Positions 1,583 through 62,969 of a stretch of DNA of 64,000 nucleotides are shown in pieces (position 1 is the first letter of the stretch; each line of letters starts with the position of its first letter). A program made the position numbers and the translations under genes. The stretch lies in the NCBI GenBank assembly GCA_000004985.1, contig GG738847.1; one strand, 5' to 3'. The notes under the pieces were generated by a model. The model worked only from the letters and a program-made list of their open reading frames with translations. It was not told the DNA's origin and made no database searches. Origin of the DNA: Naegleria gruberi. Lineage: Eukaryota.

Positions 1583-4500
1583 TTATTGTTTCTTGAGATC
1601 ACTCTTAATCTTGTCAACAAGGGCTGCCATGGCATCTTCTCCTGAACCAACTGCTGAGATCTTAGCACCTAGACCTTTTGCTGGTTGTTTCTTCTTTTTT
1701 GCTTGTTCTCTCTTTATCTTGTCTAATGACCTCTTAATAATTTCATTAAATAAAAACATGGATCCAAAGAAGTCTTTTGTGTCAACTTTTGCAATATCCT
1801 TATCCTTGAATGAAAGATATTTAAGTAAACTAGTAAAGTTTGTCTTGAATTGTTCAAATCTCTTTTCAATAGTATCACATTCTTGTTTGGCTTTCTTGAA
1901 GAAGGAAGACATTTTCTTTAAAAAGATATCTTCAGCTTCCACTTTTCCTTGAACAGTTTTGATCTTCTTCTTAAAGTCATTCAGATTGTTGACAAGAGAT
2001 TCAACTTGATTTTTCATATCATCCAACGAAAATTCTTTAGACCTAGAAAAAACTTCGAATTCTGTTGTTATTTCTTCAAACTCTGCATCTTTTGGAAGAA
2101 CTTTTTGAACACAAAAATCTGCAAGGTTTCCTTTTGCGTTATCCTTTGTGTCTTCGAGCTTTGATAAGATATCTAATTGAAAACCTTCTGCTTGACCTTT
2201 CTTTGTGCCACCGTTTAAATAGTTACCAACAGCTAGAACAATACCTAAAATGTTCTTGAAATGAGTTGATTCTTTTAGAATTTTAACAGAATTTTCAAAT
2301 GTTTCTAATGGTTTTCCAACAATAAGCAACCCTGTTTCAAATTGTAAAGTATACGTCCAACATCTAATTCTTGTAGCAAATTCTGGTGTGTTAATAATAC
2401 AATACAAATACAACTCTGGATCGGAATATTCCTTCAAGTCTTTTGTTTTGTGAACTTCCTTGAATCCATTGATGGTATCAGCATCAGGCATATTTCCTAG
2501 TAATAATTCTACGTGTTCATAATTTAAAATTGTGCTGTCCAAGTTTAAAACACCTTGCTCAATATGAGAAACTTTTGGCAGTTTTTTCAACATGATAGAG
2601 ATGTTATTAAATGTCTTTTGATCCAACAATGGGACTGATTTTGGTTCTTCCTTTTTTTCTTTCTTTTCTGGAGCTTTTCTTTCCTTCTTTGAAAACATTT
2701 CTTCAAATTCATCAGCATCCAATTCCTGTTCTACCACATTTGTCCAAATTGTATTTTGACTTATGAGGTTAGTTTCCTTATTATTTCACTACTTACATTG
2801 TTGTTGCCTTATCCCATGAAAACATTTTCATCTTTTTCTTTGGCTTAATAACTGGTTTGACAGATGTTGCAGCAGCAGCTCCACATGAAGGGAATCCAGG
2901 TACTTGAGGTACACCAAATCCTGGTGGCATTGGCATTCCACCCATTCCTGGAGGAGGAACAGGCACACCAAATCCAGGAGGCATTGGAACACCCATACCA
3001 GGAGGAGGAGGGACGCCACCCATACCAGGAGGCATTGGAATTCCTGAACTAGGAGGAGGTGGTACACCAACCATACCAGGAGGCATTGGGATAGTAGATC
3101 CAGGAGGAGGAGGAACACTACCCATTATAGGAGGAGGAGGAACACCCATACCAGGAGGCATTGGAATTGAGCTACCAGGAGGAGGAGGAACACCAAAACC
3201 AGGAGGCACTGGAATTACCGATCCTGGTGGAGGAGACATTACTCATTCCTGGAGGCATAGGGATAGTAGATCCAGGAGGAGGAGGAACAGAGCTCATACC
3301 AGGAGGCATTGGTATCGAGCTACCAGGTGGAGGAACACCACCAAAACCGGGTGGGGGAGGTATTACTGAACCAGAAGGAGGAGGAACACCACCAAAACCA
3401 GGAGGCATTGGAATTCCCGATCCTGGTGGAGGAGGAACATTACTCATTCCTGGAGGCATAGGGATATCAGATACTGGTGGAGGAGGAACATTACCGACAG
3501 GTGGAGGAACAGATGTTGGCGGTACTGGAATAGTTGGATTTGACACAGGAGGGACTGATGTTGAAGGAGTTAGAGTTGTCGGTGGAGTATTGTTACTTGA
3601 CTGTGAGACTTGGTCGGCCAACTTTTCTGCATTTTGAATTTGCTGCTCGATTTCCTTCTGAAGATTCAAGTTATTGCTGGTGGCCTCTTTCAAGAGTCTA
3701 TTTGCGTTAGCCACTTCTTTTTTGAGGTTTTCGAGTTGCCTTGTTGCATAGTCAGCTTCTGCAAAACTTCTTGTTCTTTCATTATCTAATTCTAAAGAAA
3801 GTTCATCAATCTTTCTCTTTAAAACTTCAATTTCTTCATCTCTTGGGTCATCTTCTGGAGGCAGAGGCAATTCATCCTCTGAATCACTAGCAAAAAGCTC
3901 ATCAATTTCATCTTTCTTCACTTCTGGTTGTGGAATAATGTCCGCAAAGTTTGGATCCTTTAAAAATTGTTTGGCTAGCTCCTTTCTTGCTTGTTGAAGC
4001 AATTGAAATTGTTCAGTTAATTCAAGATTCTTTCTTTGGAACCTGCTAAGATCAATTACTTTATCTGGGGAGAATTCTAAAACAGCATCAGTATCAAGTC
4101 TTTGAGAAGTACACATTCTATCAGTAAATCCACATTTCATTGAAAAAATGTTTACAGTCTCGTAGCATTTTTGAAGCTCTTGTTTGAGAACTCTAATTGT
4201 GGATTGCTGTCTTTGGAATGCAAATAGTTTTTCTTGTGTTTGTTCATATTTACAAGAAACCTTGTCTAATTCAATCTTCATTTTCTCGCAAACATACCAT
4301 GATCTTGGTATTTCAATCTTCGAGATCTTTTGGAAGATTGATAATTGTTCTTTAACACCAGGAAATTCTGACCTATTGGCAAAATCCAATGTACTTTCCA
4401 GGTCAGCCTTTCTCCACATGAAGAGTAATTTTCTCTTCTTGTCCTCTGAAGACTTTGAAAGTATAACGTTAAGTAATGTCAAGCAATTTACTTGAACAAG

Positions 4501-4992
4501 CAAATCTCCACTCTTCAAAATATCCATTATGTTTTGGAAAGGTTGTTGTTTGCATTTAGTTGCAAGATCTTTTGCTGATCTTTTCACTAATTTAATACCA
4601 TTATCCAAATAACTACAGAAAACAATCATCAATTCTAAAGCATTTTTGTAAATCTGAACATTTTGATATCCACTTGAGGTATCAGTCAAGTTATAAATTT
4701 CTGAAACAGTAGAAGGAGATTGAGAAATTACATCCATGGCAGATACGTAAACTAGGGCACTTCTCAATGCGGCTAAACCATAACCTTGGAGGTTACCTTT
4801 CAGATGTGTAACTTCTTTTGCTAAAATGGCAATACCATTCATAGAAATAAATTCTTCAGAAAAAGTGGTATCTTGCAATGTTTCCTTCAATTGAAACAAT
4901 ATTTTACCCTTTTCAACTCTATCATCCGAGTCAAGAATATTGATATAGTCCCTAGATTTTAATTCAGGTCTTAGTTTTAAATAAGCAGACAT
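1583..4992 (-). CDS. diaphanous-type formin (GBD/FH3 - coiled coil - FH1 - FH2), gene model with one 37-nt intron and a frame discontinuity inside FH1
   Basis: N-terminal ORF 3172..4992 begins MSAYLK and carries armadillo-like GBD/FH3, a coiled coil and an FH1 with tandem (P)PPGMGGVPPPP repeats. ORF 2793..3239 continues FH1 in another frame and ends KKKMKMFSWDKATTM, the start of FH2. A GTAAGT...CTAAC..AAG intron at 2760..2796 splices in frame onto ORF 1583..2737: ...KATT|IQNTIWTNVVEQELDADEFEEMF... with GNYLNGG, a typical FH2 motif. Exons are roughly 1583..2759 and 2797..4992, with a frame shift near 3172-3239. Confidence 0.8.
2880..3560. repeat. tandem DNA repeats encoding FH1 poly-proline units (about 48-nt period, ccaggaggcattgg...ggaggaggaacacc...)
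   Basis: Near-identical units are visible by eye. The reverse-strand Gly-rich antisense ORFs in the track (3161..3637, 2864..3052) are artefacts of this repeat. Confidence 0.8.
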
Positions 4993-13534: not shown

Positions 13535-13607
13535 TCCCCCTTAGCTCAGTCGGTAGAGCGTCAGACTGTTAATCTGCAGGTCGGTGGTTCGAGCCCACCA
13601 GGGGGAG
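13535..13607 (+). tRNA. tRNA-Asn (anticodon GUU)
   Basis: 7-bp acceptor stem TCCCCCT/AGGGGGA, D-arm GCTCAGTCGGTAGAGC, anticodon loop CTGTTAA, T-arm GGTGGTTCGAGCCCACC, discriminator G. A T-run (GTTTTTGT) follows downstream. Confidence 0.9.
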
Positions 13608-28353: not shown

Positions 28354-28471
28354 GGCTACGGCCATATCACGATGAATGCACCTCATCCCGTCCGATTTGA
28401 GAAGTTAAGCATCGTCGAGCCACATCAGTACTGAGGTTGGAGACAACTTGGGAACCTGTGGTGCTGTAGTC
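28354..28471 (+). rRNA. 5S ribosomal RNA (copy 1) with a downstream T6 terminator
   Basis: GGCTACGGCCATATCACG...CATCCCGTCCGATTTGAGAAGTTAAGC...GTACTGAGG...GGGAACCTGTGGTGCTGTAGTC followed by TTTTTT. The 3' end can pair with the 5' end (helix I). Upstream at 28290-28350 is a degenerate partial copy of the 5S 5' end (cggttatatcacgatgaa). Confidence 0.9.
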
Positions 28472-28854
28472 TTTTTTGAATCTGTGAATACTGTAACAAT
28501 ATTTGAAGACTCAAACTCGAAATTTGAAGGTTTATTGATCAACCACAAGTTTCTATTTCTAAATAGATAAAATTCAAAGGTGATATATAGATGGTCACGT
28601 AGCAAGCTTTTCTAAACAACAAACTTACTGAACCAACAATCAATAGATTCGTTGCCTTCACTGTTCATACAGTCAAAGACTGTAGCGGGATAGTCGCCAT
28701 ATTCCTGGCAGGCTTCCCGTCTTAATTGTTTTACAAATGAAATAACAAACTTAATTTTATGGAGACTCACACTTTATTCTAATGTTAAATAATAATTAAA
28801 AGCAAAATTGTTTCAAAAATTTAGCCTTTTTAAAGAAATTGATTTCTGTTTCAA

Positions 28855-31711: not shown

Positions 31712-31784
31712 TGCCGACACCAGGGATCGAACCAGGGACCTTAAGATCTTCAGTCTTACGCTCTCCCAACTGAGCTATGTCGGC
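31712..31784 (-). tRNA. tRNA-Phe (anticodon GAA)
   Basis: The reverse complement reads GCCGACATAGCTCAGTTGGGAGAGCGTAAGACTGAAGATCTTAAGGTCCCTGGTTCGATCCCTGGTGTCGGCA, nearly identical to eukaryotic tRNA-Phe. A T-run follows the 3' end. Track ORF 31650..31835 overlapping it is spurious. Confidence 0.95.
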
Positions 31785-33086: not shown

Positions 33087-33204
33087 GGCTACGGCCATAT
33101 CACGATTCATGCACCTCATCCCGTCCGATTTGAGAAGTTAAGCATCGTCGAGCCACATCAGTACTGAGGTTGGAGACAACTTGGGAACCTGTGGTGCTGT
33201 AGTC
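33087..33204 (+). rRNA. 5S ribosomal RNA (copy 2) with a downstream T5 terminator
   Basis: Differs from copy 1 only at about 2 positions (gattcat versus gatgaat). Shares the upstream motif gtattaaggaag with the copy-1 locus. Confidence 0.9.
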
Positions 33205-33265
33205 TTTTTACAAAATTTGAAAAACAAGGTAAATTAATTTGGTAGTTTTGTATCTTATGTTTATT

Positions 33266-35744: not shown

Positions 35745-38489
35745 CTATTTGTATTCAAGTAAATTATTAAAAACCCATCTAACAATTATGTTTTTAACTG
35801 CAAGACTCTTAATTTCAAGTGGTTGTGCAAAGGCATGACTAATCTTTGCTTCTTTGTCACCATTAAAACTAATCAAAGCATCAATAATATTGTCCAAGTC
35901 ACGTCCTTTCAATTTGAGGTTTTGGGACTCTTCTTCATCCAATCCAACACCTTGCTCAGCATCTAATAATACCACTTTAACTTGCTCAGGGCTCCAACTT
36001 TTTGGCCTGCTTTTATCCAATAGATTATCTTGGATAATTAACATTCCACAAGCTCTTTGTAATGTTTTTGAGTTTGATGCTTGATTGGCATGCATTTGAG
36101 AGGATCCAATATTTGATGTCAAAGGAGTGTATGAAGATTCAATGCTTGAAAAAGAAGGTTTTTGGGGGAATCCAACATGATAACAAATCATTTTTCTATA
36201 CAGTTCTTCCTTTTTCTGGGTGTGGTCATGAAACAGAGTATACAAATCCTTGCTTAATAAATTCTCTAAGCCTTTTTTAGTTAACAATAGAACTTCGAAA
36301 CCTCCTTTTTTCAATTTCAACCAAGATTTTGTTCCAAATTTTGGCTTTGTGTAGCTTATTGTTTCATTCTCTAGATAGCATGTTCCTGTTATAAGAAGAG
36401 ATCCATAATTATTCGCATTTTTTTCTATAACTCGAAGTACGCTATCTGAATATCCCATAACTACCATTATTACTGTGAAGTGTAAATTTTCTCCATTCAA
36501 AGATGGCTTTTCTTCAACTGAATAGGTATTGGGTAAAAAAGCCGATGCTTGATTGATTTCTTCTTGCAACTTTGATAAAGAAAAATCCTTTTCATAGAGT
36601 TTCATTTCAAATAATAACAATTTTCTTAATACTTGTAATGGAGTTTTGTTCAGTGCTATCAATACATCAAATCCACTATTAATTTCTCCAGGAATAGCTG
36701 CACAAAATTGATTTTCACTCATAGCATCGTCTAACACTGAGGTGAATGATACGTAATTTGGATGTAGGTAATTACTAAACCCCATCTCTTGATCGTACTG
36801 TTGTTTTGTGCTAATTGGTGAAAATCCAGGGATTAAAATATTTTGTGTTAAAAAATTGGGAGGTAACTCTAAACTACTAAAAAATGTTTCTTTGAAAATC
36901 CCGCCACATAAATCCCCAAATACAGTAATTTCGTTCGTTTTTGTAAAAGAGAGAGTCAATATTTGTTCAGCTAATAAATCAATGACTGATAATTCCAACG
37001 CCTTTGAAGTGTGGAGTAAAATGGAATTATTTTGCAACAAATTATAGCGCACTCCACTTATTGATGTTTTGAATTTTGATAATTTCATTAAAATATCATC
37101 TTTTAGTAGCTTGGGTATATTAATCTTGACAGTCTTATCTTCCATGACTTGAAAATGCATTTTTAAATATGGAAGTATTTCAATAAAGTTTCTGTGCCTC
37201 TTATTAAAGTACAATTTCTAAAACTCATTAAACTGAAAACTAAAGAATTCTACACTTACTGTTTGAGATGGTATGGCAATACCAAAGGAATGGAGTAAAT
37301 ATAAATGAGCTACCAATTTGGCTTGTTCATCATTGCGCAGAGCAATCGTCACATCGTGTTGTTTTTGCTCAGATTTTTCAATAGCTTCACATATTTTCTC
37401 TTTTGATGATAAATTATTCAAGTTACGCAAAATGCTATTGAATGCATTTTCCATTATTCTTGGAGCAGTTCCAGTATATTCCACAAGAATATCTATGAAA
37501 TCATCAATATCATTTAAGCCTAACAATTGTAAAGCATCCAATAGTGTGATACACGAATTACCTTTTTGAACATGACTCTGTCTGAGCATGATTTCGACGA
37601 CCTGGTTTTCCATAGGTGACAGAAATACAAGACAGTAATCAGAAGGTGGACTTTTTTTAACATCTTGATTCTCTGTCAAAGCTAAGTGTACAGGAATATG
37701 ACCACTAAATATAACAGTGCTCTTATAGGGGATCAGAAGTGGCATTACTTCATTCCATAATTCTAGAAAGCGACTCAAATAAATATCACAACCTTCTTTA
37801 CATGTTGTCCATTTCGAGTCTTGCAATAGTTGCCCAAAATTATTCTGTAAAATTCCATCTACTTCATCAACAAGTACTAAATATCCTTCAGGTAAGGATG
37901 AATCAATATTTAAAGCTTCAAAAATAAGGTTAGCTCCATAATCGTTTTGGTTTGCAAAATCCAACATCTTTTGGTAAAAATCTTGTCTTTTCTGTAAAAG
38001 ATCTTGTGATCCATTTGGTTGGAATTTTGTTATAAATTGCTTGCAATATTCCTTAACCACGAAATCAGCAATTTTTTTGCTCATATCTGAAATACTTTCT
38101 TCCGAAGAGACTTTAAATAATCTAAAATCCAATTCAAATAGCTGTAAATCTTTCACCCATTCCGATTGTTGATCCCATTTTCCATATACCTCTCTAAATC
38201 TTCTGACCAAGGTTGTTTTACCAATACCAAAGGTTTGAAAAAGCGACACTAATTTAGCTTGGCTCAAGTTTTGTTGCTTCTTGTTTTGCACTAAAGTATT
38301 AACAATTCGTTCCGACTCATTTTCACGATTAACAAATTTAAGTTGTAATGCAGAGTTTTTGAGGTCTTCTTTTGTTATTAATACATGAGTCTGTGGAGAA
38401 GAGAAAGGTTTGGTGGTTTCGGGTTCTTGTTTTTGCTTTTTGTTTTTAGGACCATCACCTGCCATTACACATTTTGTGCATTTTTTCAT
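35745..38489 (-). CDS. STAND/AAA-type P-loop NTPase (about 913 aa), two exons (37260..38489, 35745..37217) separated by a 42-nt intron whose 3' TAG is the in-frame stop seen in the track
   Basis: The two track ORFs lie in the same frame, separated by one TAG. GTAAGT follows ..PSQT at 37259 and the 42-nt intron ends TTTTAG at 37218-37220. Walker A FQTFGIGKTTLVRRF. True ATG at 38489. Confidence 0.6.
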
Positions 38490-40126: not shown

Positions 40127-40197
40127 ACGGCCAATGCAAAACGACAAAATTATTGACAAAAAAAATAAAATAAAAGGAATATGGTTATGAACCAGAT

Positions 40198-41556
40198 TTA
40201 TTGCTTCTTATTAGCCTTCATTCTTTCCCTTAATTTATTCTTAGAATCGGATGAATTCATTTGAGCTTTTTGTTGTTCCATTCTCAATTTCTCGTAATGT
40301 TTTACTGTCCAGTCACCTCCTTCAATTGAGTAAAAGTCCATTGGATAGATTGGTCTCCATTCAGTGGCTGTTAAAGCTACCTCAGCTTCATAGGCAGTCA
40401 GTAATGGTTTATCAAAGAAGTGACCCCAATCGATTGAGAGACGAGGACAAGCAATTTGAATCCAACACTCAACATCGTGGAATAGTTGAAGTTTGCTTGG
40501 GAAAATTTCACTCAAAAGGAGAGAAACATATGGAATATTCTTTTCGTTCAGTAATCGTTCAATAGTTTCAAGAATTTTTGGAGAACCTTGTCTACCCAAA
40601 GTTCCTAGAATTACACCAAACTTTTTGGCTTTCTTTGCCTTTTCAATGGCATCTTGTCTGATGGAAAATAATTGTGGATGATCATAGTGTTCCTCTGTGA
40701 ATTTCTTTCCATATGGATCATATTTGTAATATTTCAATTCTGGATTTTGAATCATGACACTTTCCAAATGGAATCTACCATCTCCCAAATAAACCATAGT
40801 TTCAATTTGATGATTTTTAGCTAAATCTTTTGGACTTGTGCAACCCAGAACTTCACCAGGTGACAATGGTTTAACTTGAGGAATAAATACAGGAGTTGTG
40901 AAATGTTTGTCCAATTCTGCCTTGGCAGTTCTTAAACTTGAAACAAATTGAATAGTTGCAACCATAGCCATTTTGGTTTCTTTTGGAAAGTTGTTAATCA
41001 TTGATTGAACAAAATAATTAATATCAATTTGAATATCCACAAAAACGTATAGAATATTCTTAATGCAACAATCACTGACAGGAACAAGACAACTGTGAGC
41101 ATAATGCACCATGAAATCAGCACCCAAAGCTCTAGCAGTAAGATCATCTATACAGCATGCTCCGTATGTGACATCTCCCATAATTACTGTACTTGTTTCT
41201 GGACAAAATCTTTCAATAATATCACTAATCACACAACTAAACAAGAGCAATCCTTCAGGAAATTGCAAAGCAACTCTCTTTGGTTTAATTTGTTGAATTC
41301 TATGAATAGTTTTATGAATTTCAAAATTATAATTTGTTGGAAGTGTTTCCTTGATGAGTCTATTCAATTCTTCGTTTTCTAAAATTGAAGCAGGAACACT
41401 TTGTTGTAATTTAATACTAGATGAAAGATTAACTCCTGCATATGGATTTGATTGTTGTTGTTGTTCAGGAGTTTGTCCAATATTGTTGTTATTGTTATTA
41501 CTATCTTCCGATGATGAAGAAGAAACGGCAACAAGACTTGTTTCTTGATTTTCCAT
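40198..41556 (-). CDS. DPH1: diphthamide biosynthesis protein 1 (DPH1)
   Basis: [35 protein letters not shown], typical of DPH1/DPH2 radical-SAM-like family members. Length and C-terminus fit DPH1. aaaaaaaATG start. PolyN/Q N-terminus. Confidence 0.85.
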
Positions 41557-41757
41557 TTTTTTTTATTCGTTTCAAAATTTTTATTAATTTACAATTTTAA
41601 ATTATTATATACTAGTCATAATAATAATATTAAATTATTATCACTTCTTCATGGTTATTAATTTTTTAATTATAATTCTATATGGAGGACTTGATAGTTT
41701 TCTATTTTTCATTGTTATTATTTTAATAAAATTACTTGATGATTATTTACATATAAA

Positions 41758-44295: not shown

Positions 44296-47200
44296 TTATT
44301 GTTGATCTTGTTGCATGGATGGTGGTTGATAGACTTCATCTTGTTGCAATAACAATTCGTCGTCTTCATCTGATTCACTTTCTTCACCATCTTCGAGAAC
44401 TTGAATTTCACTTTCTTGTTGGAAGACATAGTCACCAGGCTTCTTTCTTTCACTCTTCAATTTCTTCAACTTTCTCTTACCCTTTCTAATGTAAACTCTA
44501 GTGAGAGTCTTGATTCTTTCGACAGCTTGTGGATCTCTCATAACCAAACCAACGAATGATAATACCAAGAAAATGATAGTGATAGCAATCAAGATAATTG
44601 GTGAAATATAGTAGGCCTTATAGGAGAAACCATAATTTTCCAAAGCAGTAGCAACATTTTGATTACTTTCTTGATACTTTCTAATTTCAACAGTGTACAT
44701 TAATTCGACAGCCCATCTCACTGGAGAAGAACAAACCAAAACCAATGTATACCATTCCTTAGACATGGTACGAACTGTTGGTTGAACACCACCCAACAAG
44801 GCACACAAAATAATGTACATTACACCAACAAATTCAGCATGAGTTCTTTGAACGAAAACTGAAATGAAATAGCCAAGAGAACTGAAAACAATTTCGAATA
44901 ATAAGAAGAGTCCATAGTATGTGTAAAATTCAGCTTCAGGATTAACGAGGATATACCAGAAAGTAACAAAGACCAATGGATAGATCAACAAGGAAGGAAT
45001 TTCACCAGTCAATTTACCAAGGAAGTAACTCATCTTGTTGATACCATTCTGAGCTTCACGTCTATAGAGTTCCTTATCAGCACCAAAACATTTGAGTGAA
45101 GATTGCATAGCAGCAATGGCAAGAGCAGAAACTGTAACAATACTCATTGGTGCAATCTTATCAATTCTTGGCAATGAACATTGATTACTAATAAATGTTG
45201 GACACAACTTTTGAAGAGTTGATGAAAGAGGACCAATAAAGTCCATGTTAAAGTAGAAACCTCCAATAATTACAGCAAGAGCAAAGTGGAAGAAGAAATC
45301 AAAGAAGACACCCTTGTAGTGACGACTCAATTGAAGCAAAGCACGAAGAGAGAATAAGAGATATTGACCCAAGAACGCAATTGGCTTTCTTTGTCTTTCC
45401 TTAGCAACTTCACTGCCCAACAAAACTTGTTGTGGATCAATAACAGAAGCACCAACTTCTTCATCATCTTCTTGTTCTTGTTCTGATTGTTGAGTTTCAT
45501 TACCATTTCTTGATTTGAGCCATTTCTTTTCATTTTCTTCCTTCTTCAAGTCCCACAAGTGCAACAAACGTTCTGGTTCAAAGTTTGGATCACCAGGTCT
45601 TTCAACATTACCCAAACAAACATCAACAAAAAAGTCTGGAGGATTTTCATAGTTTGGACATTTGAAGCCAATTTCTTCAAAGAATCTCAAAGCATCCTTG
45701 GTTGGACCATTGTAAACAATGCCACCATTCTTACCCATGATAATACAATCGTCAAAGAGGAGGAATACATCATTTCTTGGTCTGAGCATGGTAGAAACAA
45801 CTGTAGTACCACTTTCAGCAGCCAACTTGAAGGCCTTACACAAGAATTTCTTTCTTTCGAGTGGAATTTCATCGAATGGATTATCGACAAATAAACAAAC
45901 TGGATCAGCAACCATTTCAAGAGCCATGTTAACAAAGACTCTGAGTTCTTCATCGAGACCGTGCTTCTTTGATTTACCAATTGTATCATACATAAAGTTT
46001 TCAATACCCAAAACCTTACATGTCTTTTCAACACGTCTACCAACTTGACTGTATGTATAATAACTTGGCAAACGAGAGTGACCAGCAAATCTCAACAATT
46101 CGTGAACCTTCAATTCCTTAGCCATATCAAGTTGCTTTGGGGCAAAGCTGATAATATTTCTGAATTCGTGCGGATCCTTAATTTGTTCATTAATCATAAT
46201 TTTACCATGAACGAAACCCAAGTGATGTCTACCAGAAAGAGTATTGAGCAATGCAGAAGTTGCTTCAGAATCAACACCAATAATACATGTAGTTCTTCCG
46301 TGATAGACACGACCAGTGACACCTTCGAAAATAACTTCTTCACTCTTCTTTCTGATATATGACAAATCCTCAAAGGCATAATCAATTGTAAAGTTCTTCT
46401 TTGAGAATGGTGGTTCATTGACGAGAGAACCAGTACTATCATAATTGAATTGTTCATTTCCTTGAATAAAGTTGGCAATATTAATACCAATGTTGGCAAG
46501 ACCATTTTGTCCTGAGATTTCTTGGTCTTGTTTAATCTTCTTTTGCTTCATCTTCTTCTTCTTGTAAGAGGCAGTGACACATCTGACAACAACGAAAGTG
46601 ACCAAAACGAGGAAGACAACAACGAACATTAACAAGATACCCAAATAGAAGGATTGTTGCTTGGCAGAACCTTCTGGACAATAGGAGAACCATTGACAAC
46701 GTTTAGGATAAGTAGAGCCAGCAGCACAGTGATAACCAGATGGACACAACAACATTGAGTTGGTATTAGGGCAATAATAACCAGCAGTACAAGCAAGTGG
46801 TTCCTTAGTACCTCTTGGGCAATAATAACCATCTTCACACAAGACTTTGCTTGACAAGGTTGGACAATAGTAACCTTCTGGACAATAGTGCTCATCACTA
46901 CCATAAGTACCAGTTGGACAGTATTGAGTTCTGTTACCAATTTGTTCCAAACATGGAGTTGGAGTCATAGAGTATGGAGTTTCACAATAGTTCAATGCAG
47001 GACAAGCATTTACGAGAGTAGTGCCTGTAGTGTCAAGTCCTTGAGTAGCTAATGGACAATATTGACCATTTCTACAAGTGTATAATTGACTTCTAGTTTT
47101 TCTTGCAAGATAACCTGGTGGTACTGGAATAGACATCAAAGGGTTCAAACAAATTTGACCATCAGGACATCTTTGCTCAGTAGAGGAACCTTCAATTCCA

Positions 47201-49403
47201 CAAGTTGTTTCAAATGTTGAGGAAGGTGAACAAGCAGTAGGTGCAGTCATGGCCGAATCTTTACATTTGAATCCAACAGGACAAGGTCTTCTACGACCTT
47301 CGTTATTGGTTGGACAGTAAAATCCTGGTTCACATTTAAAGACCATTGTTGGTCTAATTGTGTGATAACCAGCAGAAATAGAAACAGTATTGGCGTAACC
47401 TTCAGCAAGAGTTTTCCAGAATCACCATATCTTGGACAAGTCCAACCTCCATTACACATTGAGAAGTAACCAATAAAATCGAATGCAGTATACTTGGTTG
47501 GATATTTCTTACAAGCTTCAGTAAATTTAGTCAATGAAGATGGAGGATTTGAAGAAGCCAACAAGGTGCAAATATCTTGCAATCTTATTCTGGCATCAAT
47601 ATCAAAGGCCTTTCTAGAAAGGACAGCAAAGATGTGTTGTGCATTTTCAGAAACATAAATGTCATTAATTTTACCATCACTGTTCAATAATGCAGTTTGT
47701 TGCAATGTAAATAAGCTTGAACTAGAAGTGGAAGCAGAAGTGTCAGTACAAGCATACTCTTGGAAGGAAAATACTTCAATACTTTCTCTTGTGGCAATGT
47801 TGATGGTGTGATAAAATGTTGAATAGGCATCAGTGATAGCAGTGTCACTTGTTTTGTACATTCCAATAACCATCTTTGAAGGAACAGCTGATGTGGTTTT
47901 CAAATCTGATTCCTTATTAGGTCTGTTAGTACAGGTTCCACTCTTTGAGTATTGAGGTTTGGTAGTTGATGTATAAGAAGTTGAGCATGTTGTGTCAGCT
48001 GGTATACCAACGGCCTTGTATATGCCAGCTGGGTCAGAACTAATATCAGTTACATCCTGACTTGCCATTTCTGGAAGGTTAAAGACAAATAATCTTGGGC
48101 CGAAAGCATTTGCAGAGGCTGTAGTTGAAGCAACACCAACAGCAACCCAAACAGATTGGGAAGTCTTAGCAAGAGTACCATAACATTCAGTAAATGCACT
48201 CACAGAATAAATACTTTCACCAGAGACACCATGTGTATAAATGATTGAGGTCTTCTTTGTTAAGTCAACAGGTGAGTCATTTGGCGTACCAACGAGTTGA
48301 ATCAAATTGACTTGTGACTTGGATTGAATTAAAAGAAGAGGTCTACTGGCTTTAACTGAATTACAGTCAACCTTTGATGAATATGTTGGGTCAGCACCAA
48401 ATTGTCCATGAGCAAAACCGAAAATCTTTCTTTCCTCAGTTTGGTCAGCAAATGCCCATTTATAAAGTGTAGAACCCTTGTAAATGATAATACCATTGGT
48501 AGAAGTAGAAGTACCATATGAGAGAACAGCCATATGAGTTGCAGTTCCAAGAGTATCAATGTAGGCAATTGTTTGCAAATCTTGCACAAATTCGCTTGAG
48601 GACAATTTGGTTGTTGTATCAATGGTAAGAGCAATAGTTTTAGAAGATGAAACTGTGAGAGTACCAGTAGTATCCAATTTAAGAACCAATAATGTTTGAG
48701 TTGACAAGGTAACATAAATTGTTGCCTCAGTAGAGCTAGTTCTATAGACAGCCATCTTACTTGGTTTATCTGTTAAAGCAGTTTTAGCATCAAGTACTTG
48801 ATAAGAGTAGGCCAATTGTTCAGTAGTCATATCAAGAACAAGCAAATGTCTATTGGTCAATACTAGTAAATATTGTTTGGCACCATCAGCTGACATTTCC
48901 AAAGGTTTAGCAGCTCTAACAAAGAAACAACGATTGTTTTCGGATTGTGATGATTGATCAGTAGTGGTAACATTTCCTCCAGAATAGTCTTCCTTATAAA
49001 TTTTAACAATATTATCAACATCTTGATCTTTCACACAAATCATGTTATTTTCAGTTGATGTAATTGGTGTCTTGTCTGTTATTTTGGTATATAAACATTG
49101 TGCACCAGTGGCATCACAATTAAAAATGTCAGGATCTCTAAAAGTGATTGGTTGACTTGCTCTAAAGTTATTATATGTACACCATGATGGTCTTGAAGTG
49201 GATAAAGATGGATCACATAATCCAAAGGCTGATTTAACTTGTTCACCAGATAATGCAGCACACCAGTCTGGAGGTGTGGCAGCAAGAGTTGAAGCACAAC
49301 TCAAAGTAATCATCAACAAGATGGAGACGATTAAATATCGAACAGCAACACGTTGTTGTGCTTGTCCTTTCAACAATGGTCTATTATCATTACGTATCAT
49401 CAT
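44296..49403 (-). CDS. giant secreted/type I membrane protein: large extracellular domain plus Cys-rich GYYCP/EGF-like repeats plus a degenerate ABCG-type module, with an apparent 1-nt frameshift at 47412-47415
   Basis: ORF 47247..49403 has a signal peptide (..LLMITLSCASTLAATP) and a 700-aa Thr/Ser-rich ectodomain. ORF 44296..47346 continues in a different frame with CxxC/GYYCP repeats, a TM helix followed by KKKKMKQKK, an ABC NBD with degenerate Walker A (IIGVDSEATSALLNTLSGR), degenerate signature and Walker B (LFVDNPFDEIP), and a six-helix ABCG-type TMD. The two frames would fuse if the run GGAAAAC (minus strand) had one more A. Confidence 0.7.
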
Positions 49404-51543: not shown

Positions 51544-54500
51544 TTATTGCGTTACGTTTATTGGGCCAGATACTTCTGGTGTTACTTCCTCCTTTTCCTC
51601 AATAGGAGTGGAATGTGAAGATAAGAATCCGAGAGCTTGTAAAGATTGATTATTCACATCTTCTTGTTTCAATTTTTTCTTCGCAAACGAGCCTCTTACA
51701 GTTGGACCTTCAACACTCTTATTTGGTCCAATTCCATACAAGTTTTCCAAGTTATCATAATTTTCATGTTGATCTGCTTCAGATTCTTGACGAACTGAAT
51801 CTTCATTATGCTTGCTATTTGAAATTTTACCAACTTCAAGAGATGTGTCTGTCTTTTCATCTGCTCCTTCTTCAGAATGATGAGAATCAGTTTCATATTG
51901 TAAAGGATCAACGTGATGCTTCCTCTTGAGCAGATAAGTTTGACATAAACCTTTTCCTTTTACATCAATTTTACGTTCTTCAAATTCCATTCCCATGTCA
52001 TGAACTCTTTCATAGGTAGCTCTAGAAATTTGAATTCTGCCTGGTTCACCAGTTGACTCCATTCTTGAGGCTGTATTAATGGTATCTCCCCACAAATCGT
52101 AGGCAAACTTTTTGATACCAATCACACCAGCAACAACTGGTCCTGTATGTAGACCCACACTATGTAGTTTCAATTTAAGAAAATTTCTTAGTAATTACAT
52201 TATAAATTATATACTTACCGAATATTAACATTAGTATTCTCACTTGAATTATATTCCTTGATTACTTGAAGTGTATCAATGGCAAATCTCAATGATCTCT
52301 CAGGGTGATCTGATTGAGCATTCAAGTTGATACCACCAACACAAAAATAGGCATCTCCAATAGTTTTAATCTTTTCCAAATTATACTTTTCAGTGAGTAC
52401 ATCAAAACCATTTACAATTGCATTCAACATCAACACAAGCTCAGAAGGATTCATTCCAGAGCTGATTTTTGTAAATCCAACCATATCTGAGAAGAAAACT
52501 GTTACATCATTGAACTTTTCAGCAATGAATGTTTCACCTCCCTTCAATCTTGAAGCAACACTCTCTGGCATAATATTTAACAATAATTGTTCAGATTTTT
52601 TCTTTTCTTCAGCTAATAACATATTTTGTTTCTTTTCAGGTGTGAAATCTTTAACAAAGCAACTAATAATTGGTTTCTTATTGGCTACACTAACTGAAAG
52701 ATTAACCTTGGATGGAAATTTACTTCCATTCTTTCTGACACATTCCACTTCAAGTGTTTCACCAAATGACTGGGTTGCATTTACCATTTGCTGGATAATT
52801 TGTGCTAGTTTTTGTCTATTTGGGTCCATAGGGTCAAATAGCTTGGTCAATTGCTCGCCCAAAACATCACTATTATTCATACCATACATCTTTTGAGCAA
52901 CAGGATTGAAAAGTTCAATATCACCTTGTGAATTACATAAAATGGCTCCATCAACTGCAGAATTCAAAATTGCCCTCACCTTACCATCTCCACCACCATC
53001 TTTTTCCTTGCTTTTTTCTGATGAAGAGGCCCTAGATTTAGACGAGAGATCATTGAAAAGTACAAATTGTTTAAGAGCATCATTGGAATCAATATACTCC
53101 ACAGGTAAGTAATTGAGTAAACTTCTTAATTGTTGAATCTGATCCCAAAAATCTCTTATTAACACATATGCAAAATATGATAGTGATATTAATGCAATGT
53201 ATCCTATAACAACTGCAATTATGGATAATGTAAAACTTGGAGTCGATGCATATGTAGAATATAAATCAAAAATGTCTATTATTCTATCCATAAGGGCATT
53301 TGACATTTCACTTCCCTTAAGCAAGGTCAAGAATAAATTGTCTATAGCGTAATTACTGTAATATACATCTTCGTTCAATCTTAATGACACAGTACTAATT
53401 TCTGTAACGAGCTCATCCAAATTGGTGCAATAAAATGTGGAAACGTTGGTACAATTTGTAATTGGAGAAATAAGAATATCAATATCCTCATAAGTATTCA
53501 TAAATCTACCACCATATCTTAATACTTCCCATGAAGAAGCAATAGTTCCAAATAGTGATTTCATTTGAACGTGGTAAGTGCTAAGGTCTGATTGTGAGAG
53601 CAAACGATCATCATTCAAACTACTCTTGGAAGTATATCTCATAAAACTAAATAATTCTGTCATACGGTAGGCTGCTCTGTTTGTATTTCTGAAAATTTCA
53701 ACTCCAGAAGTAACGTATTTAATCGCTAAACTTTCAGTATTAGAAATAATTTGCATATCAACGAAAAGCATTGTAATGCAAAGAACAGTTACAATGATAC
53801 TTGACACAACAACGAGTGAAATGGTTGTCTGAGGTTTTGAAATAATTCCATTCTCTTTGATATCCATTTCTTCATCAGACTTCTTGTCGAGACCTTGAAA
53901 TATTTTACCAACTTGATCCTTGGGTAAGGTTGTGGCAATAAACTTAATAGATGATCTCAATGACCTCAAATGTACTAACAATATCATAACCACAATTGCT
54001 GCACAAACACCATATACAACAACTGCAGCTACGTAGAAGGCAATAAATTGAATGTTCATATTTTGAACAGATTCAGAATTTCTACGCAAAAATAAATCAC
54101 AATAAGCATCAAAAGCTGAGCTACCTCCATTTCTATTTGTCCATAAAAACATGAAATCACCAGATGTTATTGTAGTATTAAAGCTATTTGCTTCCTTCTT
54201 CAAATAAGTCTTGGCATATTTGATTAAACTATCAGTAATTTCTGAAATGGAAGCATTTTTGGATTGAATGTAATCGGAAGGAATTGTTGAATCATTACTG
54301 TAATAGAGAACTGGTGTAACAAGAGTATATATAGGATTGGTATAGTCTGCTATGGATTCAGAAGACATTGTACCAGAGGCCTCAGCCAATTTTAACTCAT
54401 CCAAAAGTCCCTTATACTTTTCCATTCTCTCTAATTTGTCTTGGAAAAAGTCTGTAACATTAACCACATCATGTAAACCAGAGGATATAAGTTCATTCTT

Positions 54501-56953
54501 ATAGGTTGGATAGAGTATCATAAAGTTTTGGAATACTCTAATTTCCCTCAAAAGCAATCTAGGTACAGCAGATGGCATGCAAACATAGTAGGAATTCTTA
54601 ATGTTGCTAGAGAGCTGACCAGCAAAGGAAACTGACATACCAATACCAATAGATACAATACACATTGAAAGAAAAGATAGAATCAGGAAAAAGAATAAAT
54701 AAATATTGTGTGTGTGTTGTCTGTTAAGAGAAACTCTAAACTGGTATTCCTTCTTTTGGTTGCCTACAATATTTTCAATGCCACTGAATTCATCAATTCT
54801 ATCTTCGTAGGAATGACTAATGCCACTTCTTGCTCCAGATGTTTTTTGTACATCAACGCTTGCTTGATTAGTAAATCCTTCACCAAAGTAATTACTTTCT
54901 GGCAGTACTCTATTATTTTTTCCAATCTTTTTTGGAACTGAGGTCTTTTTTGTTTCTTCTTCTTCAATATAGTTGGCTTCTTCATACATTTCATATGCTT
55001 GATCTCTTTCAAATTTGACTTCTTCTAAGAATTTTGCATATGTTCTCAATACAGTCTTATTGTTACCATAGTTTGACATGAGGCCCTTAAGAGTAATTCC
55101 AACTTCCCTTGTGATGGAAGTAATTTGTTTGTTGATACTTTCTACCTTCTCGAACGAAATATTATCATTAATAAATTCTTTAAAGAAGGACTTGTGGAGT
55201 GAGGAAATAATTTGTTGTTTCTTTTCAACTTTTTGTAAAATATGTTTAATTTCTAGCAATCCTTTGCCACTGTCAAGAATTGTCTCAATTTCTTTAGTTC
55301 TCTCTACAATAGTAAATCTTTGTAACAGAGAGGGTTGATTTTTCTTTGCCTGAATAAATTTGTTAGATAAATGAAAATACTTTAAATACGTACTTTTTCT
55401 AAAATTGCAAGTGATTTTTGTTGTCCTGTTTCAAAAAAGTTACCACAAATAATGGAGGCTGCAATTAATAAATCAACATTTTGGTAAGTTTTTTGATTGG
55501 CAACACCCTTAATAAAACATTTGGAAAGTTCCAAATCACTGAGATTACCCAAAGTAGAGGTAGATCCTTTCTTCATACACCATTTTAAGAAGAGGAATAG
55601 TCTTCTTGAGCGATTGGTTTCTTCAATTTCTTGTAAGATTTTGATAGACTCCTTTTCTAGAATGTATTTAGGATTCATAATGTCATCATTACTCAAATTG
55701 TCTAATCCACGTTCCAAGTGATTCATAAATATTCCTCTCAGATCCTTATTAATGTATCTAGTCCATAAATCCATGCACAACCAACCAATGAAGGAAAATA
55801 TTATCATTACACCAATAGTCATGCCTAACAGTCCTAAACCAAGACCATACTCATTTTGAGTATTCACATATGTGGAAACAACACCACACAAAGAACCTCC
55901 AAGAGTGGCACAAACAAAACCAAAGTAAACAGCATTCTCCCATCTTCTATAAAAAGGCATTGAAAATAAAAAGAAAATAGTGATGCAAAAGCTAGCTACC
56001 ACAAAGTAAACTGCTTGAATTACCACAAATTGATCTCCTACAACATTAATCAACAAATAGTAAATTTGATAGCTTAGAACGCTTAAAAAATAGAGATGAG
56101 CATCAAATGTTAAGAAGGGAGTTTCACTCCTTGGATTTGCATCTGTTGTTGTGTAAAAACCAACAAAGGTTGTGAAAATTGTGAGCACATATGACAAAAG
56201 ACCAATTATAATGAAAGCCAAATTGGTGCCCGAATAACAGGCCACGTCAGGAAATCTATTCAAAACTTGTTCAGCTGTTGTTGAAGAAGTGACCAGCACT
56301 GCTGACGAATAATTACAATTCAAAAACCCCAACATGAGCCAACTGATTGGCAAACTTGTTAAAGAGATTGTTACATTCAATATTCTAGTAATGACTTTGA
56401 TTTTGGGCCAATACTTGCTCATTCTGTAGATAGATCTGTAGGCAATTATTAAAATAATGACTTGAAGTAGCTGTATGGCAAATATAATACCTGCAATAAT
56501 GACCGCTGCAGTGTAAGGTAAATGTTCAAAACCAAATGTTAGAGGATAATTAACAGCTCTTGCTATCCACCTTCCATACTCGCCAAAGTTATAACTAGGT
56601 TGAATGGCAATCACTAATGTTGCCCATATGAAATATAGTCTGATGAGTAGAGTTTTGATATATTCATTTCTTCCAACTAATTCTTGTCTGGTTTGTAAAT
56701 TAAGAAGGAACATGAAGGATCTCTCCTCTAACTGAGTAACAATAGACTCATTATAGTAATCTTCCAGTGATGATGTGGTACTACCCACTTGTGAAGCATT
56801 CACAACACTACCTGCTGCATTGGCATCATTAGGTTGTCTTGTTGAAGTAATATAACTTCGCTTATCTATTGAGGCAACATTGGTAGAAAAGTTATAATCT
56901 AGCACACTTCCGGATTCACCATCTGAACCAATAATACTTCCTCTCCTACTCAT
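51544..56953 (-). CDS. membrane adenylyl/guanylyl cyclase with N-terminal polytopic domain, second TM cluster, PAS domain and one class III cyclase catalytic domain; three exons (55394..56953, 52219..55349, 51544..52159)
   Basis: Exon 1 (MSRRGSIIG.., at least 8 TM helices) ends ..ILEK|GTACGT. A 44-nt intron (55350..55393, branch ATCTAAC, ..TTCAG) continues in frame into AKKNQPSLLQRF..LLEIKHIL... Exon 2 has TM helices, PAS (..GAILCNSQGDIELFNP..) and the cyclase core (..FSDMVGFT..KIKTIGDAYFCVGG..). It ends NIR|GTAAGT, and a 59-nt intron (52160..52218, TACTAAG..CATAG) joins ..VGLHTGPVVAGVIG..DLWGDTINTASRMES. All phases checked. Confidence 0.8.
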
Positions 56954-59013: not shown

Positions 59014-62000
59014 TTAAAGTTCAGAATCATCATCACCAATCTTTTTCCTCACTGTTGACTTCTTTAACGAGACACCACCACCAAGAATGTTTGTACCAGC
59101 TTTTGGATCGTCCTTCTTGGCAGTTGATGCTGTGAGACGACTTGTTGTACTTGCATTTTTGAGATCTTGTTTAAGTTTTTCCTTCTTAAGCTTTTCTTCT
59201 TCTGCCTTCTTTTTCTTTTCGTCGGCCTTTTGTTGTTGAATATTCTTGTCGGCAGCTTGTTTAAATTGTTGAACAAAGGCATCAATCATTTGGAAGAATT
59301 TGTCTGGTTCTTTCATAAGATCGTCCTTAGTTTCATTGTACAATTCTGCGAGCTCTGTTAATTGATTCTTCATAGCTTCCATATCTTCCTTGATCTTGTT
59401 AATGGTATTGTCAACCTTCTCACAGAATGGTTGCATTTTTTCAACAAATTTGTCTCCATCAAGTTGTTCTTCAATGGCTTCTCTAATTTGAGTTTGTAAA
59501 ATGTTTTGTCCTTTTTTAAGTTCTTCCAAATCATCTTCCAAAGAGGAAATGTTCACTCTGGTGGCAGCTTGAACGTGTTCTAATTCTGTATCAAAACCAG
59601 CAACTTCTGGTTCGTTGTCTTGGACAAACTTGACAATATATTGGAGGAGAGAACTCTTACCGTCACCAGTCTTAGTATCATTCAACTTGGCAAGTGATTT
59701 GAGTTTAAAACCATAACTGATCTTATTCTTTTGTTTACCATTCAAAAAGTTACCAATTGTAAGAATAATACCCAACAATCTGATGAAATTCTTAGAGTTT
59801 TGCATTTCTTTACAGGCTAATGTAAGATTTTGAATATCAGGTCTAATTTTACCACTGATATCAGGGAATTTAAATTTAAATTCCCACGCATCAAGTCTTC
59901 CTTTGAGATTTGGAATTCCATCCATGACTTTGAAGAATTTATCAGGTTCTGCTAATTCATCCATTGGTCCATCATATGTATTGACAGTATCAATTTCTTC
60001 TCTCTCAGGAGCAATTTGCTTAATTGTACCAACATTATCAGAAGTAACAACAGCTTCATCGAGAGCAATAATAGCTTTCTTCAATGATTCATAACTTGTA
60101 CCTCTCAATGAACCTAATTGAAGGGAAACAGCATAACTACGTTTTGCATCCAACATTGATTTAACTTCCTTCTTCTTTTCTGTTGGCTTAACTTCTTTGT
60201 TTGGATCTTCCTTTTTCTTTGTAGAGAAACATGATGTCAAATGATCCAAATCTATTTCCTCAATAATGGAATTTGTCTTATTTGCAATACCTTTTGTCAT
60301 AAATACGGTATTGGTAAGTGTTGTCTTATTAATTTGGTCAAAGTGAACATTTCTGGTTGCTTCTTTTGGAGCTCTATCTGGAAGAACAGGTAATCCACCA
60401 CCAACAGCAGCACCTCTTCCAAAACCTCCTGGAACCATTGGTACACCTCTTCCAAAACCTGGTGGCATAGGAACACCCATACCAGGTGGCATTGGTACAC
60501 CTCCCATTCCTGGAGGCATTGGAACACCACCACCAGGAGGAGGAGGCACACCACCCATACCAGGAGGAGGAGGCACGCCTCCCATACCAGGTGGAGGATT
60601 GGAACACCTCCCATTCCTGGAGGCATTGGAATACCTGATCCTAAAGGAGGAGGAACACCGCCCATACCAGGTGGAGGAGGAACACCAAAACCTGGAGGAG
60701 GAGGAATACCACTATCCATTCCTGGAGGCATTGGAATACCTGATCCTGGAGGTGGTGGAATACCACCAAAACCTGGAGGAGGAGGAACAAATCCCATATC
60801 ACCACCAGGTGGAGGAGGAACAAATCCTGAGCCACCAGGAGGTGGAGGAACAAATCCAGTAGATCCAGGAGGTGGAGGCACGCCAAAATCACCACCAGGA
60901 GGTGGAGGCACAAATCCTGAGCTACCAGGTGGAAGTGGTACTGAACCACCAGGTGGAGGAGGAACGAATCCTGTCGAACCAGGTGGAGGAGGAACAGATC
61001 CAGTACTAGCTACTGTGCTAGTTGGAGGTACCTTAATAGGATTACTTTTGATAGATGAAATTTCTTTTTCGATGGCCGCAATAGTCTCCTTTAGCTTGGT
61101 TTCGTTTTCTTGATGCTTTTTGAGATCTGCTTGTAACTTTTCAATCTTTGATTTTCCTTCCTTTTCAACCTTTTCGGTTTCGTCTGTCACCTCCTTAACT
61201 TGATTTTTAACATCATCGTCTTGATCGCTTGAGTCTAATTTCTTTGTCCAAGTTTCCTTTTCCTCATGGAGCTTAATTTTTGATGCCACAGATTCAGAAA
61301 GTTCCTTACTGATTGTCTCTATTTCAACCTTCAGGTCTTCAATCTTCTTCTTGTTATCTTCACATTCTTTTTGAATATTTTGTTTCTCCGATTCGAGTTT
61401 TTGAACAAGTTCATTAATAATTTGCTCATTTTGTTGTCTTTCGTACTCAATTTTGTGTAACTTTTCATTCTGTTCTTGTTTAAATTTGTATTGAGAGTCT
61501 TCTAAATCAATAATTTGACTTTGGTTCAATCTGACTTGTTCTTCCAACTTGATTTCCAAATTAGTCCAATATTCTACATTTCCTGTTTCTCTGGACTGCT
61601 TTAAACTTCTCTTAACAAGTGCTAACATATTTTTCCAAGCTTCAAGAACGGTTTCTCTGTCCAAATCTCCATCTTTCATCTTTAAAACAATGTTAAGTAA
61701 TCTTTGAAGGATGTTAAGCATACTGGTCATGGATGCTTCGTTTAACATCAAGTTCAAAAGTTTTACAATTTCAGTTGGGTCACTTAAATCTTTAAGGACA
61801 GCGTGAGCATCTCCAAGATCACTGATTTTGTCTTCGAATCTTTCAATTTCTTTACTCAGATCCATTAATGTTTCTTCATTTTCATTACCTCCATAAGAAT
61901 TGGCAAGTTCATTCTTCAATTCATCTACTAACTCAACCATACCTAAATTTCTCATTTCCTTCTTGATGAGAGATTTACTACCTTCATCAGGTGCATTTGT

Positions 62001-62969
62001 CAAAATTGCATTCACTAAAATCATGACAGCCAATTTGTAATCCAAATCTCTTGTTTCTTGAACTCTTTGAACAATATCAAAGAATCTTCTCTTTTCTCTT
62101 TTAACCAATTTATAGTGATTAAAAGCATTCATAACAAGGGAGAAACCTTGATATGACCATCCACAAAGTAATGCTAATATTCTCAGACATTGACTTGCTG
62201 TGTTAACATTGTAAGTATCAAGAATTAAAGCCAAATTTTTAACAGCTTCAGTTTCGGATAAAAATTCATCTGCACCGATATTGGTATGTACAAGTGCACG
62301 TAAAGAGCTCACACACAAAGCTTGTTTTTGCAATTCTTCTTGATCACGTTTCTTTCCCAATACATTTGTCAATGCTAAACATTCTCCCAAAGCTCTAATA
62401 CCTCTTTCCATAATAAATTGGTTGACCCAACGTGTTGGAGCTGTTCTAATAAGAACATGAATAGTTTCCAAAATTTGTAAATCATAACCTCTTTGTTCCC
62501 ATAAGGCTAACATTTCACCAACACCTTGTTCAGTTGTTTCTTGGTCATCAATATCACGTTTGTTTTGTTTATATCTTTTCAATTCTCTAAATTTTGAAAT
62601 GAGTGGCTTGTTAGCAGATTCGTACTCTCTAACTTCTTCCGAAACACCAATATCAATCAACATTTCAATAAATTGTTCATTGATATCATCAGGAGAAATA
62701 TTGGAAGGAATTTCAGAGTGATGATCTAATGTTGAATCACCAGAATGATCCGTAAATGTACTAGCTGCTGTTGTATAACTTGTTGAGTCATCACCAAGAG
62801 TTGCCGTGTTGATACTCTGTTCTACTCTCTTCTTGTATTCATCCTTCTTCTTCTTTCTGTCCTTTTTGATTTTTTTTTTCAATTGATCTTTTACAGTTTT
62901 GGCGGTTTGATTGTTTTGATTTTCAATACTGTTTGTATCCACAGAAGAACCTATTAGTTTCTTTAACAT
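59014..62969 (-). CDS. diaphanous-type formin (GBD/FH3 - coiled coil - FH1 - FH2 - basic DAD-like tail) with a frame discontinuity inside the FH1 repeats near 60590-60600
   Basis: ORF 60297..62969 has GBD/FH3 armadillo, a long coiled coil, FH1 (..GFVPPPPGG.. and GIPMPPGMGGVP..) and ends in frame-garbled sequence. ORF 59014..60585 begins MGGVPPPPGMGG.. and carries a complete FH2 (..LLGIILTIGNFLNGK..) plus a Lys-rich C-terminus. The two ORFs overlap in different frames. Confidence 0.8.
60390..61010. repeat. tandem DNA repeats encoding FH1 poly-proline units (second formin)
   Basis: Same ccaggtggaggaggaacacc...cataccagg unit family as at 2880..3560. The antisense Gly/Glu-rich track ORFs (60599..60862, 60641..60949) are artefacts. 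Confidence 0.8.

Follow-up and report, generated by a model that had tools for sequence, protein, structure and literature searches.

The window analysed here is a 64,000-nucleotide (nt) stretch of contig GG738847.1 from the Naegleria gruberi assembly GCA_000004985.1. On its minus strand lie two long, partially overlapping open reading frames (ORFs), of which the upstream one, ORF A (47247..49403, 718 amino acids (aa)), covers a predicted ectodomain and the downstream one, ORF B (44296..47346), a Cys-rich region followed by a part related to ATP-binding cassette (ABC) proteins of the ABCG type. ORF A reads ..CPRYGDSGKLLLKVTPILFLF.. before its stop codon at 47247 and has the C-terminal end ..CNGGWTCPRYGDSGKLLLKVTPILFLF...KIRP*. 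A TGA at 47422-47424 closes the frame of ORF B on its upstream side; from 47421 this frame is open, and it reads FWKTLAEGYANTVSISAGYHTIRPTMVFKCEPGFYCP.. and continues to 44296. The two ORFs overlap by 100 nt in different frames. Seen from ORF A, ORF B lies in the -1 frame (equivalent to +2), as (49403-47346) mod 3 = 2.

An A4 run (T4 on the plus strand) is found at 47412-47415, and the insertion of one A at this position yields a single ORF of 1702 aa with zero internal stops, in which the junction reads GDSGK-TLAEGYANTVSISAGYH. An earlier note on this stretch, made from the letters alone, had stated that one added A joins the two frames and that the second frame opens right after GDS, and this general layout was confirmed. 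The note had also spoken of a "+1 frameshift", which is correct if it means that one base has to be added. As a ribosomal direction it does not apply: the DNA is one base short, so that a ribosome would need to slip by -1 and not by +1.

Homologues of the two reading frames

Comparison with homologous proteins shows that ORF A and ORF B are the halves of one predicted single-exon N. gruberi gene, cut by one lesion. The repaired protein is 64% identical, over 97% of its length, to the ENA orthologue P0001 (1735 aa), which is the closest orthologue with a DNA-level comparison and is encoded by one uninterrupted 5.2-kb ORF without intron (L001:7867-13074). Both halves are likewise present in one polypeptide in Naegleria lovaniensis (XP_044554665, 1721 aa), in Willaertia magna (KAL9645155, 1785 aa) and in at least seven further homologues. 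In blastp comparisons, ORF A matches the N-terminal extensions of these homologues up to residue 660-663, and the match to ORF B begins with the residues that follow immediately in the same polypeptides. The proposal that the ectodomain of ORF A and the Cys-rich and ABC parts of ORF B belong to one gene is thus strongly supported by the orthologues.

When ORF B alone was used in an exhaustive HMMER search, thousands of ABCG relatives were retrieved, the closest of which have 330-710 extra N-terminal residues; the best named homologues in this search come from N. lovaniensis and W. magna. Word-index protein searches missed close relatives that HMMER found, and the missing N. gruberi model there carries no meaning. 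The exact ORF A, the exact ORF B and five models bridged by "introns" of 26, 38, 47, 56 and 113 nt gave no match in the protein collection. With regard to metagenomic data, a DNA scan of JGI metagenome contigs for the exact junction, with A4 to A6 allowed, returned 0 matches, and a protein-guided scan of the same contigs returned 0 confirmed loci.

Acrasis kona, one of the at least 11 homologues that cover both halves, does so as partial gene models on one contig. Its homologue is annotated in pieces on this 38,669-bp contig, namely as a "partial" ectodomain of 757 aa (P0155) and a 367-aa "WBC30" (P0025), and other genomes may likewise tend to have split models for members of this family.

Apart from the lesion, neither half carries any other stop or shift, which leaves one lesion in 5.1 kb, and 11 out of the 11 aligned homologues are in frame at the linker in which the break lies. 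Purifying selection acts on both halves: in the comparison with the L001 orthologue, the ratio of non-synonymous to synonymous substitution rates (dN/dS) is 0.36 for the upstream half and 0.155 for the downstream half, with dS saturated at 1.0-1.5. As evidence on pseudogenisation, these two ratios and the single lesion must be read with the distance of the orthologue in mind, since a comparison at dS of at least 1 is insensitive to recent loss.

The end of ORF A had been described as non-coding-looking, and this is borne out, as the similarity to orthologues lies in frame B only. The tail 47247..47411 does not code in frame A, the same DNA being coding in frame B. This tail stays open for 55 codons in an off-frame that has 50 stops in ~1700 codons (P = 0.23), and both its length and its hydrophobicity are within chance.

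The frame break and its explanation

Conservation in frame A extends through GDSG (to 47415), and in frame B it is certain from VSIS (47385) onwards. The high-scoring segment pairs of tblastx change frame between 47406 and 47394. In the junction alignment, the flanks S.CNGGW.CP[RLQ][FY]G and G.H.IRP...CEPG[FY]YCP are both conserved, and the linker that holds the break is non-conserved, ranging from 10 to 20 residues among homologues; in the orthologue on L001 it is 10 nt longer (9+1). The limits of conservation, together with the opening of frame B at 47421, therefore confine the break to 47385-47421. Within the gene there are 45 runs of at least four identical bases in 5108 nt, and ~30% of 37-nt intervals would hold one by chance, so that the A4 run is the most plausible site and no more than that. 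The earlier assignment of the break to this run thus stands as the likeliest guess, but not as a demonstrated location, given that conservation leads only to the interval.

The missing base is probably an error of the draft Sanger assembly, made in base calling or in the consensus, and an A5 read as A4 at 47412-47415 would be its likeliest cause. One base would have been lost from the reference of strain NEG-M, in the linker between ectodomain and Cys-rich region, and the cell would make the full 1702-aa protein if the lesion is an assembly error. The window belongs to this reference, six of its intact ORFs being identical to the NEG-M proteins XP_002682291, XP_002682297, XP_002682298, XP_002682301, XP_002682503 and XP_002682505, which are encoded on a scaffold of 941,567 bp; the window has a GC content of 33% and zero N characters. 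The NEG-M reference assembly was obtained by Sanger sequencing (PMC9928731 Table 1). A consensus error is favoured because the lesion is the only one in an otherwise intact and constrained 5.1-kb ORF. Furthermore, the two formin genes in the window have exactly one isolated frame break each, located inside FH1 and dividing GBD/FH3 from FH2. Together with the break in the linker, these account for the three frame breaks that had been counted in the window, and since three single-lesion breaks occur among ~35 window genes, indel errors in a draft consensus fit better than three fresh pseudogenes. The error class that had been invoked, a "homopolymer indel", is not supported, as this class belongs to 454 or nanopore data and the assembly is Sanger, and as the formin break at 60597/60598 is not in a homopolymer.

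Certain points weigh against an assembly error and in favour of a base that is truly missing in NEG-M, where a recent frameshift, either fixed or present on one assembled haplotype, would have left a young pseudogene or a null allele truncated after the ectodomain. The sequence as given carries the break, and a Sanger consensus rarely miscounts runs of 4-5 bases, except at low coverage or read ends. A real deletion of 3n+1 bases is possible, given the 10-nt difference in linker length to the orthologue, and the formin breaks lie in repetitive FH1 DNA and may be assembly-specific, saying little about the break in the linker. NEG-M has been grown axenically as a clone for a long time and is probably not haploid, both of which make a real or allelic null plausible, and between-species dN/dS is blind to a loss of this kind if it is recent. 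Nevertheless, both halves are otherwise intact and conserved around a single lesion, the gene has been kept as one polypeptide across Heterolobosea, and two more single-lesion genes in the same 64 kb would amount to an implausibly high load of fresh nulls. A real lesion is the less likely explanation of the two, albeit one that deserves to be kept in view, and it would mean only a lost or null allele of a surface ABCG-like protein in a laboratory strain.

The remaining explanations are all far less probable. Two genuine separate genes, one for an ectodomain protein that is secreted or anchored and one for an ABC protein with its start at the Met at 47346, would agree with the length and ATG start of both ORFs and with the A. 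kona annotation in pieces (P0155, P0025). However, the 100-nt overlap leaves no room for a promoter, and the first ATG of ORF B aligns with an internal, non-conserved I/M/L position (RPTMVF vs RPTIVY), from which ORF B would begin with a Cys-rich region of extracellular type without a signal peptide. As homologues hold both halves in one polypeptide, with the exception of the partial A. kona models, this arrangement is very improbable. A short spliceosomal intron across the break is still harder to credit. With an acceptor at 47400 and donors at 47425, 47437, 47446 or 47455 (26, 38, 47 and 56 nt), four GT..AG candidates do give an open product of 1683-1693 aa, and three of them fall within the 37-59-nt range of the real introns in the window. 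The earlier statement that no frame-restoring GT..AG intron of 37-59 nt exists is thus mechanically inaccurate, in view of 47437..47400, 47446..47400 and 47455..47400, but correct in that no real intron bridges the break. With a GC fraction of 0.42-0.43, the donors GTGATT, GTCCAA, GTTGGA or GTAATG and a purine-rich acceptor, the candidates are unlike the real introns (2760-2796, 21806-21848, 22993-23038, 37218-37259 and 52160-52218), in which the donor is GTAAGT and the GC fraction 0.17-0.30. Moreover, each candidate would remove residues that are conserved in frame in all homologues (CNGGWTCPRYGDSG), and the orthologous gene is intronless.

Programmed -1 frameshifting or transcriptional slippage at GGA_AAA_C, which would give the full-length protein alongside a shorter one with the ectodomain, appears just as far-fetched as the intron. 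A tRNA-Lys paired with AAA could shift back by one base onto the overlapping AAA, and the hydrophobic stretch LLLKVTPILFLFLLVITQL in the out-of-frame tail could act as an anchor. The site resembles those of the viral gag-pol type and the A_AAA_AAG site of E. coli dnaX in that a -1 shift would occur beside an A run, but differs from them in lacking an in-phase slippery heptamer, a stimulatory structure and conservation. No zero-frame X_XXY_YYZ heptamer is present, as GAU_UCU_GGA_AAA_CUC has only a single-codon A_AAA overlap, and the predicted fold of the next 136 nt does not stand out from those of shuffled sequences (minimum free energy -29 vs -25.5 +/- 3.3 kcal/mol, z = -1.07, for folds free of pseudoknots). 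The orthologues are in frame (11/11 aligned, with L001 in one ORF), the site lies in a non-conserved linker, and the tail does not exceed chance in length (P = 0.23) or in hydrophobicity. With regard to slippage, a run of four A is far too short for it. Equally implausible is a variant with a real A4 in which the locus has been split and recoded, the ectodomain being anchored by the LLLKVTPILFLFLLVITQL tail as a decoupled, receptor-like product and a minor fused ABC form arising through occasional -1 slippage on A_AAA. The earlier note had treated an assembly error, a pseudogenising mutation and a programmed frameshift as equally likely, which is not supported, and on weighing these points programmed frameshifting has nothing in its favour.

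Most likely, then, the finding is an ordinary one and the frameshift is not real as a biological feature. Its value lies in annotation, since the NEG-M reference should carry one gene of ~1702 aa at this locus, instead of two ORFs or a model with an artificial intron, and the same holds for both formin genes in the window. Judging by accession order, the public model of this locus would be one of UniProt D2V0P7 to D2V0P9. The protein family is of more interest than the break, as it comprises a conserved heterolobosean surface protein in which an ectodomain with a beta-propeller and Cys-rich repeats would be coupled to an ATPase-degenerate ABCG module.

The predicted protein

The features of the gene, with the residue numbers of the repaired protein, are collected in Table 1.

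Table 1. Coordinates of the gene, of the frame break and of the predicted protein features in the window
Feature	Position	Strand	Basis
Whole gene after one added base, 1702 aa	44296..49403	-	orthologues of 1721-1785 aa span both halves contiguously
Upstream coding part, frame A, Met1 to ..CPRYGDSGK	47412..49403	-	blastp to P0001, P0003, P0004 and P0155 stops at residue 660-663
Downstream coding part, frame B, TLAEGYANTVSIS... to stop codon	44296..47411	-	78% identity to N. lovaniensis
Out-of-frame tail of ORF A, LLLKVTPILFLF...KIRP*	47247..47411	-	only frame B resembles orthologues
Break interval, variable linker between CP[RLQ][FY]G and GxH[TV]IRP	47385..47421	-	opening of frame B and conservation
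A4 run, likeliest place of the missing base	47412..47415	-	sole homopolymer of at least 3 in 47385-47421
N-terminal hydrophobic signal or anchor, residues 24-42	49278..49334	-	hydropathy scan
Predicted beta-propeller ectodomain, residues ~157-598	47610..48935	-	
Cys-rich region, six CxxGx[YFH]C repeats, residues 691-905	46690..47334	-	repeats and conserved Cys columns
Single transmembrane helix between Cys-rich region and nucleotide-binding domain (NBD), residues 922-940	46585..46641	-	hydropathy scan
ABC NBD-like region with degenerate Walker A, signature, Walker B and H-loop	45592..46353	-	alignment to Pdr5, ABCG8 and ABCG2
ABC-2/ABCG-type membrane domain	44539..45366	-	Pfam ABC2_membrane_7 3.5e-34, ABC2_membrane 2.2e-16

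Residues 664-905 contain 23 Cys, and the membrane domain is found C-terminal to the NBD-like region, which is the order of ABCG-type, reverse-topology ABC proteins. The NBD-like region reached only 21.2 bits with Pfam ABC_tran, under the cut-off of 25 bits. Alignment to Pdr5 pairs GVDSEATSA with GASGAGKTT, GLDEELRV with GLNVEQRK, LFVDNPFDE with VFLDEPTSG and TMLRP with TIHQP, and none of the catalytic motifs (Walker A GxxGxGK[ST], SGGQ, hhhhDE and the His of the H-loop) was found in this alignment. P0001, P0003, P0004, P0005 and P0008 are degenerate in the same way, as are the N. lovaniensis and Willaertia orthologues and several further homologues, and the distant homologue P0017 retains the canonical GLSGAGKST, SGGQRKR and LFCDEPTSGLD. 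The protein is predicted to be a type-I-like membrane protein with a catalytically degenerate NBD. Even so, a dN/dS of ~0.13 was noted for the ABCG-like protein (44296-49403, especially 45592-46353), indicating strong purifying selection. Taken together, the shared degeneracy and the selection suggest that the ABCG module attached to the large ectodomain is non-catalytic or depends on a heterodimer.

The N. lovaniensis protein (XP_044554665.1 / KAG2392771.1, annotated as "ABC transporter family G domain-containing protein") and P0001 share this architecture from the signal sequence to the C-terminus, with an identity of 44% in the ectodomain and of 78% in the Cys-rich and ABC part. Their linker has CPR[FY]GDSG ... 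VS[IV]S.G.H.IRP in common with that of N. gruberi, and their degenerate Walker A reads GVNDEASL, compared with GVDSEATS here. They differ from the NEG-M sequence in having one uninterrupted ORF, which for P0001 is established at the DNA level, and a linker that is 3 residues longer. No synteny with the orthologous contig L001 was found outside the gene.

Among known transporters, the ABCG (White/WBC) proteins, such as human ABCG2, ABCG5/G8 and ABCG1, Arabidopsis ABCG25 and yeast Pdr5, have the NBD before the membrane domain, as is the case here. Matches to solved ABCG structures range from 1e-19 to 4e-32, and the Acrasis homologue is annotated as WBC30. Unlike ABCG half-transporters, the protein would have an extracellular N-terminus of ~900 residues, made up of the propeller and the Cys-rich repeats, together with an additional transmembrane helix, and all of its NBD motifs are degenerate. 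Searches of the literature for Naegleria ABCG proteins and for heterozygosity in NEG-M returned nothing relevant beyond sequencing technology.

Other features of the window

The second frame break, at 60597/60598 (region 60590-60600) on the minus strand, lies between the ORFs 60297..62969 and 59014..60585, in the proline-rich FH1 repeats of a formin. The sequence there reads "ccaatcctccacct" where sister repeats read "ccaatgcc...", so that one G is missing (ccaatGcct -> ccaatcct) at a non-homopolymer position. The third break, at ~3233-3237 (region 3225-3245) on the same strand, lies between the ORFs 3172..4992 and 2793..3239, in the FH1 repeats of the second formin, with FH3 upstream and FH2 at 1583..2737. 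At this site "..ggaatgagtaatgtctcctccaccagga.." shifts the frame, and the lesion is ambiguous, as either 2 bases are missing or 1 is extra.

With regard to RNA genes, two dispersed 5S rRNA genes are located ~4.7 kb apart on the plus strand (28354-28472 and 33087-33205, with 105 and 100 bits, respectively). A tRNA-Phe gene (31712-31784, minus strand) lies between them, and a tRNA-Asn gene is found at 13535-13607 on the plus strand. A large multi-exon gene at 51544-56953 on the minus strand encodes TPR, PAS and class III adenylate/guanylate cyclase domains and has a 59-nt GTAAGT intron at 52160-52218. Furthermore, the 1.6-kb metagenome contig L002 (ENA ERZ929261, run ERR1078381) is 99.3% identical over 1441 nt to positions 40174-41614 of the window, which correspond to the diphthamide-synthase gene region of NEG-M, and the product is identical. 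On the basis of this contig, a second N. gruberi-like strain exists in public data.
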